Part shown: piece by piece, positions 500-6,729 of the stretch | Position numbering within the stretch: the stretch's first letter is position 1 | How the letters are laid out: each line of letters opens with the position of its first letter | Assembly (NCBI GenBank): GCA_965223505.1 | Contig: CBDCWP010000043.1 | Coordinates: 73,014-137,013 of the forward strand | Source of the DNA: Planctomycetota bacterium | Lineage (GTDB): Bacteria > Planctomycetota > PLA2 > JAEUHO01 | Direction of reading: 5' to 3' | DNA length: 64,000 nucleotides | Made by a program: the position numbers and the translations under genes | Notes under the pieces: model-generated | The model's input: the letters and a program-made list of their open reading frames with translations, nothing else | What the model was told of the DNA's origin: nothing | The model's database searches: none

Positions 500-550
500 G
501 ATGCGGGACCCCGGGGACGCCGCGCAAACGGGCCCGCAGTGGAGACATCG

Positions 551-1816
551 ATGTCGGTCCTTCGCAATGCCAGTGTGGCGCTTTGCCTGCTCGCGATCGC
601 AGCGGCATGCGGCGAGTCGCCGGCCGGGAAGCAGCCCACGTCTTCGATCGAGCTGAACGCGGACACGTTTGCGGCCCTCCGCGACCAGATCCAACCGTCC
701 GAGGCCGAGCGTGCGTGGCAGCAGATCGACTGGTATCCGTCCTACGCGGAGGGTCTGCAGGCGGCGTCGGTGCAGCAGAAGCCCGTGCTCCTGTGGGTGA
801 TGAACGGCCACCCGCTCGGCTGTACCTGAAACAACGGTGTCGCGGGCCGGCGGTCCGTGTGGTCGAACCCGGACGTGATCGAAACGGCGAAGCCGTTCGT
901 GGCGGTCACCGACGAAGTCTGGCGACTGCAGCGCGGCACGGACGCGGAGTGCCGCCACTTTCAGAAGATGGCCGACCAGGGCCACTACCGGGCCAAGGGC
1001 GGCACGCGCCAGGGCATCTACGTCCTCACGGCGAACGGAACGTTCCTCGCATCGGTCAACGCGCTCGACGCGGCGAAGGTGCTCGAGACCATGGAGCAGG
1101 GACTCGCCGCGTGGGAAGAGACGTCCGCGGACGCGCGCACGCTCCCCGACGACTGGGACCTCCCGCGCCGCCGCTGGGAGTCGAGCTATCCCGAGGACGG
1201 TCTGGTGCTGCGTACCCTCAACGCCGACCTCGGGCCGAACGCGGATCGCAAGCGTCTCAATCGCGACCACGTCTGGTTCACGGTCGGGGAGGCGCGTGGC
1301 TGGCTCGGTGCGGATCCGGCTGTCGGCGACGTCCACGAGGTCACGAAGACGATCGTCGAACGGCTCGCGCAGTTTCATCTCGTCGACAACGTGCGCGGCC
1401 AGACGCTGCCGTTCGCGGCGGAAGAGACCGCGGGGTCCAGGATCACGACGACGGTGCGCTCGCGCGACGGCGACGTCGTGGCGTTCGGGATCGAGGGAAC
1501 GACGACCGCGGAGACCGACGGCACGTGGAAGTTGGGCAAGAGCGACTGGACGCCCAAGGAGGCGTTCCCGCGCCGCGTCACGACGAAGCTGCTCGGCTCC
1601 GGCCGCTACGACCTGTCGTCGCGGCGCTTCACGGCGTTCGAGCTGGTCGCGGTGGGGGAGCGCGAGGGGCGGACGAACCTGAACGGGCGGCGCGACGACG
1701 ACGTCGGGCCCGCCCCGATCGGGTTCTACTTCGAGCTCGCGCCGGATCGACCGGCGGAGCGCGTCGCGCCCGCGTTCGTCGACATCTACGCGGACTGGGT
1801 CGTTGACCCGCGCTGA
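551..1816 (+). CDS. Putative selenoprotein: thioredoxin-like lipoprotein with C-T-U motif (TGA 827-829 read as Sec, 421 aa)
   Basis: ORFs 539-829 and 857-1816 are in the same frame, separated only by TGA. Joined sequence KPVLLWVMNGHPLGCT-U-NNGVAGRRSVWSNPDVIETAKPFVAV is a continuous Trx-like segment. GGAG RBS before ATG 551, lipobox-like LLAIAAAC, hairpin at 841-859. Confidence 0.75.
841..859 (+). promoter_or_regulatory. Candidate bacterial SECIS hairpin
   Basis: CGCGGGCC-GGC-GGTCCGTG: 8-bp stem (2 G-U pairs), G-rich loop, starting 11 nt after the in-frame TGA. Confidence 0.6.
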
Positions 1817-2737: not shown

Positions 2738-2875
2738 CGACTCCTCTTCGTGTGGAGGAGTGTGACCGATTCCCACGGCGCCGTGCGCGGGTACCCCCTC
2801 GCGGCAACCGGCCCCTTCACGCTAGCATTCGTTTGTTGATGAACCTGCGTGCGCGTTTGGATTGGGGGAACCGCG

Positions 2876-4099
2876 ATGGCAAAGAGCTTCAGCGCTGCCG
2901 AATGGAACAAGGTCAACACCGAGCTTCGACGGAACCCGAGCAAGTACGGGATTCCGGCTCGTGTCTACGGCTCCGTCGTCATGGCGTCCTTCAACATCCG
3001 CAAGCTCGGCGCCGAGGCCGGCCGGGACGACCGCACCTGGCGCTTTCTCGGCAACGTATGCCGCAACTTCGATCTCATCGCGGTGCAGGAGATCCTCGAG
3101 GACCTGACCGGGCTCGAGCGGCTGCGCAAGGAGATCGGCAAGGGCGGAGTGGACTACCACGTCATCGTGTCGGACGTGACGGGCGTCTTCCCCGGTGACA
3201 AGGGCAACCCCGAACGTCTCGCATTCCTCTATCGCCCCTCGGTGATCGAGCGCGGCAACATCGTCTCGGACCTGACCTTCGACCGCACCAAGGTGCTGCA
3301 GCTGCTCGACGCCGACCTCGACGCCTTCCACAAGGGCATCCGCGACCACCGCAAGGCGGTCAAGGAGTGGGAGAAGGAGAAGGTGAGGCGCAAGGCCGCG
3401 GGGAGGCGCGCGCCGGCCAAGCCCAAGCTCGTGTTGCCCTTCCTCGGGTTCATCCGGCAGCCGTACGCCGTGAGCTTCAAGGTCGTCGGCATGCCGGGGA
3501 CGAGGCCCTATGCGTTTCTCGCGGTCAACGCGCACCTCGTGTGGGGGAGCGGCGAGGAGATCGAGCGCGACCGCGAGTTCCAAGCGCTCATGGAGTGGAT
3601 CCGGTCGCGTGAAGCCGGCACCGACGGGACGAGCTACCCCGGCGTCATCCTGTTGGGCGACTTGAATCTGGATTTCGACAAGACGCTTTCCGACTTCGAG
3701 AAGATCGCGCCGTTCCTGAAACCGTTCGAGAACAAGAAGGGCGAGCCGATCCAGGTCCGCTTTCCCTTCCTCGTCAAGCACCGGAACCAGCCCGGGGTGT
3801 TTCGGACGAACGCGCGCGCCAACCAGACCTACGACCAGATCGGGTTCTTCTTCCGGGAAAACCAGATGGCGCGGCACGTCATGGAGACCATTGCGGATCC
3901 GCAGCTGTCACGCATCGGCGAGCACGAGCGCGGCCCCGACTACGGCATGTTCAACTTCGTGGAGCTCTTCAGTCAGGCGCTTCACGGCAAGCCGTTCGCG
4001 CAGCTTCCGGGGTCGAAGCGAAAGGCGTTCTACGCCCTCTTCGAGCACAACGTCAGCGATCACATGCCGCTCTGGGTGCGCGTTCCGCTGCCCGACTGA
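2876..4099 (+). CDS. Endonuclease/exonuclease/phosphatase (EEP) family protein
   Basis: SFNIRKLG, DLIAVQEI, GDLNLDF, YDQI and SDHMPLW motifs. Confidence 0.85.
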   Translation: MAKSFSAAEWNKVNTELRRNPSKYGIPARVYGSVVMASFNIRKLGAEAGRDDRTWRFLGNVCRNFDLIAVQEILEDLTGLERLRKEIGKGGVDYHVIVSDVTGVFPGDKGNPERLAFLYRPSVIERGNIVSDLTFDRTKVLQLLDADLDAFHKGIRDHRKAVKEWEKEKVRRKAAGRRAPAKPKLVLPFLGFIRQPYAVSFKVVGMPGTRPYAFLAVNAHLVWGSGEEIERDREFQALMEWIRSREAGTDGTSYPGVILLGDLNLDFDKTLSDFEKIAPFLKPFENKKGEPIQVRFPFLVKHRNQPGVFRTNARANQTYDQIGFFFRENQMARHVMETIADPQLSRIGEHERGPDYGMFNFVELFSQALHGKPFAQLPGSKRKAFYALFEHNVSDHMPLWVRVPLPD

Positions 4100-5706: not shown

Positions 5707-6729
5707 ATGCGTATCTGCACACTTCTCGGCGCAACCGCGCTCGCGTTCCTTCTCGCCACGACGGCTTGGTCCGAAGGCGGCATCGCCGTCGGCGAAGAGG
5801 CCCCCGACTTCGAGGGCGGTGACGTCCTCAACTCCGAGCCGATCAAGGTCGGCGACCTGAAGGGACGGTTGATCCTGCTGGAGCTCTTCAGCACGACCTG
5901 AGGTCCGTGCAAGACTCAGGTCGGGCACCTGAACGAGCTTCACGAAACGTACGATGGCAAGGGACTCACGGTTCTCTCGGTGACCGGTGAGGACAGGGAC
6001 CGAGTCGAGCCCTTCGTCGAGGAGTTCGGCGCGAACTTTCCCATCATGTGCCAGGCACAGTCGGGCGCGTACTCGACGGGCGGCGTTCCGTCCGCGTACC
6101 TGATCGGCGCCGACGGCACCGTCGTATGGCAAGGCCATCCGGGCAATCTCCAGGATTCCGAGATCGAAGGACATCTGAAGGACGTCAAGAAAGCCGACCG
6201 CGTGAGCACGTGGGCCTTCACGATCGTCAAGCAGCTGCCGCCGGTTCCGGACAAGCTCAAGGGCGTCAAGAAGAGCCTCGAGAAGATGAAGTTCGGCGCC
6301 GCGCTCAAGACCGTGGAAGCGGCGCTTCCGAAGCTCGAAGGCGAAGATCTCGAGGCCGGCGAGGCGATCCGCGACTGGATCGCCGGCAACGGGAAGACCA
6401 GCATGGACAAAGCCGCCACGCTCGTGCGCGAGAACAAGATCTACGACGCGTTCCTCGTGTACGAGGGTGTCGAGGACCGCTTCAAGGGACACCAGCTCGG
6501 CAAGGACGCGAAGGCCGCCGCCAAGGAGCTCAAGAGCGGCAAGGAAACCGGTCTCGAGATCAAGGCATCCGAGAAGCTCATCAAGGCCAAGAAGGAAATG
6601 CGCGGCGAAAAGAAGTTCGAAGACCAGCTCAAGTGCTTGAAGCCGGTTCTCTCGAAGAAGTACGCCGAGACCGCAGCCGGCAAGGAAGCGGCCAAGATGG
6701 CCGAGGACATCGAGGCGAAGCTCAAGTAG
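5707..6729 (+). CDS. Putative selenoprotein: exported TlpA/peroxiredoxin-like redoxin with U-x-x-C motif and helical C-terminal extension (TGA 5899-5901 = Sec65, 340 aa)
   Basis: ORFs 5707-5901 and 5980-6729 are in frame. Joined: VGEEAPDF..DLKGRLILLELFSTT-U-GPCKTQVGHLNELHETY..GLTVLSV..GVPSAYLIGADGTVVW.GHP. TGA sits at the first Cys of CxxC. Signal peptide present. Confidence 0.88.
5916..5932 (+). promoter_or_regulatory. Candidate bacterial SECIS hairpin
   Basis: TCAGGT-CGGGC-ACCTGA: 6-bp perfect stem, G-rich loop starting 21 nt after the TGA. Confidence 0.6.

Follow-up and report, generated by a model that had tools for sequence, protein, structure and literature searches.

In a 64,000-nucleotide stretch of a Planctomycetota bacterium genome (contig CBDCWP010000043.1, positions 73,014 to 137,013 of the forward strand; hereafter the window), two consecutive open reading frames (ORFs) of the "hypothetical" kind very probably form one gene, which encodes an exported thioredoxin-fold (Trx-fold) protein whose active-site residue is selenocysteine (Sec, U) encoded by an in-frame TGA. 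The window is GC-rich, and both ORFs (539/551..829 and 857..1816) lie in one common frame of the plus strand; the sole interruption of this frame between 551 and 1816 is the TGA at 827-829 (context GGC TGT ACC TGA AAC AAC GGT). Read as U from the ATG at 551, it yields a 421-aa protein with U93 in KPVLLWVMNGHPLGCTUNNGVAGRRSVWSNPDV. On reading the window sequence, no purine run like GGAG was found before the GTG at 857, where the downstream ORF begins. The initial annotation of this DNA had proposed that the 96-aa and 319-aa ORFs are one frame broken by this TGA, that the downstream ORF has no ribosome-binding site and that an 8-bp hairpin with a G-loop begins 11 nt after the TGA, and all three proposals agree with our analysis. 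The TGA, which it had wanted confirmed in sequencing data, stands in a region (809-851) with no differing letter in the contigs of four public runs (two samples, one study, one run possibly the source). The features of the locus are as follows.

541..544, +, Shine-Dalgarno-like GGAG, putative, 6 nt before the ATG at 551
551..1816, +, predicted whole selenoprotein gene, 421 codons including UGA-Sec codon 93, plus the terminal TGA; homologues align over about residues 5-421 across the TGA
551..610, +, putative signal peptide at the N-terminus, lipobox-like A-A-A-C (Cys20)
704..1138, +, Trx-fold domain spanning residues 52-196
800..838, +, active-site loop M-N-G-H-P-L-G-C-T-U-N-N-G, residues 84-96, invariant alignment columns
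827..829, +, UGA as predicted selenocysteine U93; TGA in all motif-bearing loci, Cys in seven uninterrupted homologues
841..859, +, candidate bacterial selenocysteine insertion sequence (SECIS) hairpin, 8 bp, loop GGC, within four published constraints (accessible part of PMC13188914)
1139..1813, +, beta-barrel-like domain at the C-terminus, residues 197-421
1814..1816, +, true stop TGA; homologues terminate here with TGA, TAG or TAA

In order to follow the codon among relatives, 401 genomes of the same phylum were searched in all six reading frames across stop codons (E ≤ 1e-10). Family matches occurred in 120/401 genomes, and among the 150 matches listed (13 further ones were unlisted) 139 have an in-frame TGA and 11 have none, four of these 11 missing or barely reaching residue 93. 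The 30 best loci of the phylum carry the TGA at the identical column (30/30) within the invariant M-N-G-H-P-L-G-C-T-U-[N/G/A]-N-G, whereas the genuine stops of these genes differ (TGA 19, TAG 7, TAA 4). A one-genome-per-species collection contains 430 stretches encoding a relative; 80 kept from these and the 30 earlier loci make up the 110 loci examined, 108 with the motif and two without a motif match. TGA was found at the Sec column in 108/108 motif-bearing loci, at 40-69% identity and with a GC content at third codon positions (GC3) of 0.19-0.96. The form GHPLGCTU[NG]NG is present in 105 of these 108 loci, and the site itself reads G-C-T-U in 106 and A-C-T-U in two. An alignment of 27 sequences (40-66% identity to the window protein) shows invariant residues both before the TGA codon (W61, P78, W82, M84-L89, C91, T92) and after it (N95, G96, R100, D121, E122 and others). 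Conservation on both sides of codon 93, with TGA or Cys at the codon, is what the initial annotation had proposed to look for, and homologues ending there with TAA or TAG, the outcome it had set against its own proposal, were not seen among the motif-bearing loci. Up to four matches per genome were recorded in G108, G067, G116 and G229; these are deep paralogues (26-35% identity) retaining G-H-P-L-G-C-T-U-N-N-G.

When 1.84 billion cluster representatives were searched with a profile, 3,082 of them proved to be relatives at E ≤ 1e-3, with 1,937 left at 1e-10 and 498 at 1e-30. Only 13 of the best 150 representatives span the Sec column, the other 137 starting after it. Cys occupies the column in 7/13 (C-T-C, C-N-C twice, C-D-C twice, S-T-C and Q-A-C; five are C-x-C), giving Sec/Cys pairs, and the remaining six have Ser (2), Asp (2), Ala (1) or Arg (1). 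The Cys forms L052 and L053 are uninterrupted genomic ORFs. The family is large and probably almost always selenium-dependent, its Sec forms being much more numerous than its Cys forms, whereas almost every selenoenzyme has many more homologues with Cys than with Sec (PMC13188914, accessible part). The excess of Sec forms explains why searches for Cys/Sec pairs would miss it.

The source genome (5.15 Mb, 44 contigs, 92% complete) encodes tRNA-Sec (69.2 bits), selB (335.7), selA (507.2) and selD (338.1), all above curated cut-offs, so that the complete set of genes that had been named as a check on the proposal is present. The tRNA-Sec gene lies on the window's own contig (G000:C43:10939-11033), about 62 kb upstream of the window, and selA and selD adjoin each other (G000:C8:36851-39232), selD having one in-frame TGA of its own (Sec-containing SelD). 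Across the phylum selA occurs in 290/401 genomes and in 116/120 family-positive genomes, counts taken from genomes that are kin and not independent. Among the four selA-negative family genomes, two have Ser forms without TGA, one has a partial match and one is 67% complete.

The hairpin at 841-859, CGCGGGCC-GGC-GGUCCGUG, has 8 bp and a 3-nt loop starting with G, begins 11 nt after the TGA and folds with -11.5 kcal/mol. It fits the bacterial SECIS (bSECIS) model, for which the accessible part of PMC13188914 gives a loop of 3-9 nt with G in its two opening positions, a stem of 4-16 bp, 16-37 nt from the UGA (here 19 nt) and a minimum free energy ≤ -7.5; a search for such an element was among the checks initially suggested. 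We compared 98 distinct sequences from genes with GC3 of 0.19-0.96, numbering the U of UGA as column 1 (helix 15-22/26-33). The cleanest evidence for a constraint at the RNA level comes from synonymous sites. Third-position entropy is at least 1.40 bits in 31 of 32 conserved four-fold-degenerate codon columns (median 1.90); only the Gly codon 6 after the UGA has zero, with C in 98/98 sequences, including those where the residue is Asp or Ala. Codon 8 after the UGA likewise ends in G in 98/98 despite encoding Arg, Ala, Val, Gly, Glu, Gln or Met. At the top of the stem the two invariant third bases (columns 21 and 27) pair together and close the loop, whose first base is G in 98/98 (GG 64, GU 17, GA 16, GC 1). 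The 8-bp helix is paired in 85.1% of cells, compared with 29.5-53.9% when the partners are slid by 1-3 columns, cells changed on both sides number 29 compared with 14.2 in shuffles (0/500 as high), and the hairpin alone reaches -7.5 kcal/mol or below in 65/98 sequences. AT-rich Marinimicrobia/Neomarinimicrobiota metagenome-assembled genomes (MAGs) and one single-cell genome keep the GC-rich core GGCCGGCGGUCC after the TGA; this set comprises L084, L088, L092, L096, L102, L114, L117, L119, L126 and L133, with one MAG each labelled Luminiphilus and Saprospirales.

An AlphaFold model (pLDDT, the predicted local distance difference test, 92) consists of a putative signal peptide, a Thioredoxin_7/DsbD-gamma/AGR-like Trx fold and a beta-barrel-like C-terminal domain that has no clear relatives. 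The core of the model has the topology beta-alpha-beta-alpha-beta-beta-alpha, its redox residue stands in front of helix 1, and Sec93 takes the nucleophile position; a Trx fold is what the initial annotation had read from the pattern around the active site. U-N-N-G stands where the usual C-x-x-C would be, and before it lies a five-residue-longer invariant loop, N-G-H-P-L-G, which carries Cys91. The 27 aligned homologues have hydrophobic N-termini, many with L-x-x-C, on which, together with the sequence itself, the putative signal peptide is based, and the protein is probably lipid-anchored in the periplasm. What was initially described as an exported CxU enzyme with a C-terminal domain of about 250 aa can accordingly be kept for the C-T-U site and the distinct C-terminal domain (residues 197-421), while export stays a prediction.

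It can be assumed that SelB and tRNA-Sec would decode the UGA at 827-829 as selenocysteine, directed by the hairpin at 841-859, and the predicted function is probably that of a periplasmic selenol/thiol oxidoreductase. Sec93 would stand where C-x-x-C has its nucleophilic, N-terminal Cys (U-N-N-G versus C-x-x-C/S) and attack the substrate; Cys91 may then resolve the intermediate as an intramolecular selenenylsulfide (C-x-U), with the invariant His87 nearby, in a selenol-based thiol/disulfide or peroxide-type oxidoreduction. The tightly conserved C-terminal domain could bind or present the substrate. We give this specific Sec93/Cys91 chemistry an even chance of being correct.

Several observations weigh against the selenoprotein interpretation or parts of it. 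Sec insertion itself is a prediction from genes, and one genome (G336, 67% complete) has the TGA form without a selA match. The folding energy of the hairpin is not exceptional in GC-rich DNA when compared with shuffles (821-900, z = -0.30), so that its significance rests on the comparative data. The shuffle statistics of the helix are inflated by the relatedness of the sequences, and since conserved codons lie within the hairpin, the protein accounts for part of its conservation. RNAalifold retains five pairs only (-1.12 kcal/mol), the outer pair 15-33 is unpaired in 53/97 rows and the pair 18-30 in 24, and Rfam gave no match for the hairpin. The non-redox residues at the Sec column (6/13) show that a redox residue is not indispensable to the scaffold, and Sec forms without Cys91 occur (A-A-G-U; C-A-V-V-U), which means that a resolving role of Cys91 is not general. 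The HMMER alignment to AGR2, with U93-N-N-G opposite C-P-H-S, is weak and not significant (E 1.2-2.5). Conserved neighbours give no functional clue either, any neighbour being common to at most 12/98 loci.

At the locus L051 (G320:C321:4500-12500) two family copies lie about 4 kb apart on one contig, one A-A-G-U (Sec, no Cys91) and one T-G-D (Asp); the latter belongs to a 1541-aa ORF (P0150) that starts with a protein-kinase-like region. Further domains accompany the family in single representatives (P0134, P0115, P0159, P0170, P0211 and P0229), namely a C-terminal EF-hand, Peptidase_M28, SecDF_P1_head, a PQQ propeller, Laminin_G_3+EEP, or FGE-sulfatase with planctomycete PSD/PSCyt.

The family could also be a bacterial relative of animal SELENON, as the initial annotation had suggested, both going back to an ancestor that had Sec as the Trx nucleophile, a Cys just upstream of it, and a place of work in an oxidising compartment. 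We consider this unlikely, although it fares better than the other alternatives. Both are Trx-like selenoproteins of an extracytoplasmic or luminal compartment with a partner Cys N-terminal to Sec (immediately so in SELENON), the closest solved folds include AGR2/AGR3 of the endoplasmic reticulum (ER) lumen and UAS domains, and the distant P0134 representative has a C-terminal EF-hand, which SELENON also has. The spacing may resemble that of the human SELENON sequence as well. The shared features, however, belong to the whole Thioredoxin_7/AGR subgroup. SELENON has the motif S-C-U-G, sits in the ER membrane as a type II protein, and carries an EF-hand as well as a Trx-like part near its C-terminus (PMC12839072, accessible part). 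The family motif is one residue off, in differing flanks, and the domain order is signal peptide, Trx fold and barrel, with no type II transmembrane anchor N-terminal of the Trx part and no EF-hand in the window protein or any of the 27 aligned members. SELENON was not among the hits of a PDB search with the window protein, Table 1 of PMC13188914 (accessible part) contains no SELENON-like family among prokaryotes, and a literature search found no bacterial SelN-like protein. The initial interpretation is therefore retained for the selenoprotein gene and its Trx fold, and not for the motif and architecture of SELENON.

With respect to the codon itself, a selenium-free reading of the UGA as Trp, Cys, Arg or Gly, whether by a near-cognate tRNA or under a reassigned code, is very improbable. 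One 404-aa database protein (P0102) does have Trp at the Sec column (A-C-V-W-N-N-G), either from a real TGG or from a gene call with TGA as Trp (code 4). However, TGA serves as a normal stop within the same genes, the presence of the family tracks selA, Cys is the commonest replacement (7/13) and the hairpin fits the SelB-type SECIS model. Even less probable is that the TGA is an ordinary stop separating a 92-96-aa exported peptide from a 319-aa protein. Gene callers do read the split form: in a protein search with the joined sequence (8000 scored candidates, 627 matches at E ≤ 1e-3), 119 of the 120 top-scoring relatives extend over 77% of it or less, the part after the TGA, and are called "hypothetical protein" where named, as had been expected of standard pipelines, and about nine in ten cluster representatives are end-truncated at the TGA. 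Yet the codon is fixed in the motif-bearing loci where real stops vary, the starts of the "second gene" scatter over profile positions 99-223 with no Shine-Dalgarno sequence in the window, the stop would split the Trx fold (a strand at 79-84 on its N-terminal side, helices and strands at 97-196 on the other), and the Cys-form homologues are uninterrupted. A pseudogene or assembly error, for which nothing speaks beyond the in-frame stop itself, can practically be dismissed given the agreeing contigs of four runs, the same codon in all motif-bearing relatives and the strong purifying conservation on both sides.

The selenoprotein family appears to be absent from current selenoprotein catalogues. 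Pfam has no matching model: Thioredoxin_7 (PF13899) scores 13.9 bits (E 0.061) against a threshold of 27 bits and matches 5/27 members at E ≤ 1. Among the curated selenoprotein models of NCBIfam release 20.0, only NF041382 (VPGUxxT) gave a hit, to 1/27 members (E 0.1), with 11.9 of the 350 bits needed; the motif here is G-C-T-U-N-N-G. In the accessible part of PMC13188914, none of the 119 families of Table 1, compared by domain ID, has the motif, domain IDs or architecture of the family, and the parts compared of the Global Ocean Sampling (GOS), deep-Sep and BSepDB papers describe no such family. The same Table 1 (accessible part) lists as Trx-like selenoproteins of bacteria the UxxC TlpA-like/Redoxin/Trx proteins, Trx7/PDZ NF041199 (CxxU), VPGUxxT NF041382/3 and Thioredoxin-like Sec.1 PF13192 (CxU). 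The family shares with these the Trx fold, a single Sec in a redox motif, a SECIS 3' of the UGA and mis-annotation as split ORFs, but differs in its motif G-C-T-U-[NG]-N-G, the excess of Sec forms and the large novel C-terminal domain, and their models miss it. Compared to Thioredoxin_7/DsbD-gamma/DsbH (PF13899; PDB 3f9u, 1vrs, 2ju5), it has C-T-U-N-N-G instead of C-x-x-C, a longer invariant loop, Sec and the additional C-terminal domain. AGR2/AGR3 and ERp18/19, ER-lumen members of the protein disulfide isomerase (PDI) family with C-x-x-S/C, are eukaryotic and have Cys instead of Sec, no upstream Cys and no C-terminal barrel.

Downstream of the gene, on the plus strand, lie a CBM9-like protein (1803-2570; PF06452, E 1.4e-13), which in its longest ORF overlaps the selenoprotein stop, and an endonuclease/exonuclease/phosphatase-family protein (2849-4099, weak match). 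A second split selenoprotein gene was found at 5707-6729 (+), with a signal peptide and a TlpA-like L-F-S-T-T-U-G-P-C-K site (TGA codon 65).

The broadest proposal, which we regard as unlikely, is that the protein is the first described member of a large, nearly obligately Sec-dependent family of periplasmic enzymes (the G-C-T-U family, about 3,000 cluster representatives). By descent, this family would be what bacteria have in place of the SELENON/AGR type of Trx-fold proteins in the ER lumen; its C-terminal substrate domain would be new, and its chemistry, built on a Sec nucleophile, an upstream Cys and an invariant His, would lie beyond C-x-x-C. If true, it would offer a tractable bacterial model of the SELENON active site. 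The selenoprotein family widens the prokaryotic selenoproteome, with 120/401 genomes of the phylum, 430 stretches including many Marinimicrobia MAGs and 3,082 representatives, and with a model of the family thousands of annotations could be put right. Its excess of Sec over Cys forms makes it well suited to the question of why Sec is retained. Having an unusual C-x-U site where the Trx nucleophile lies, together with a domain without recognisable relatives, the family is likely to harbour novel redox biochemistry in the periplasm of planctomycetes and marine bacteria.
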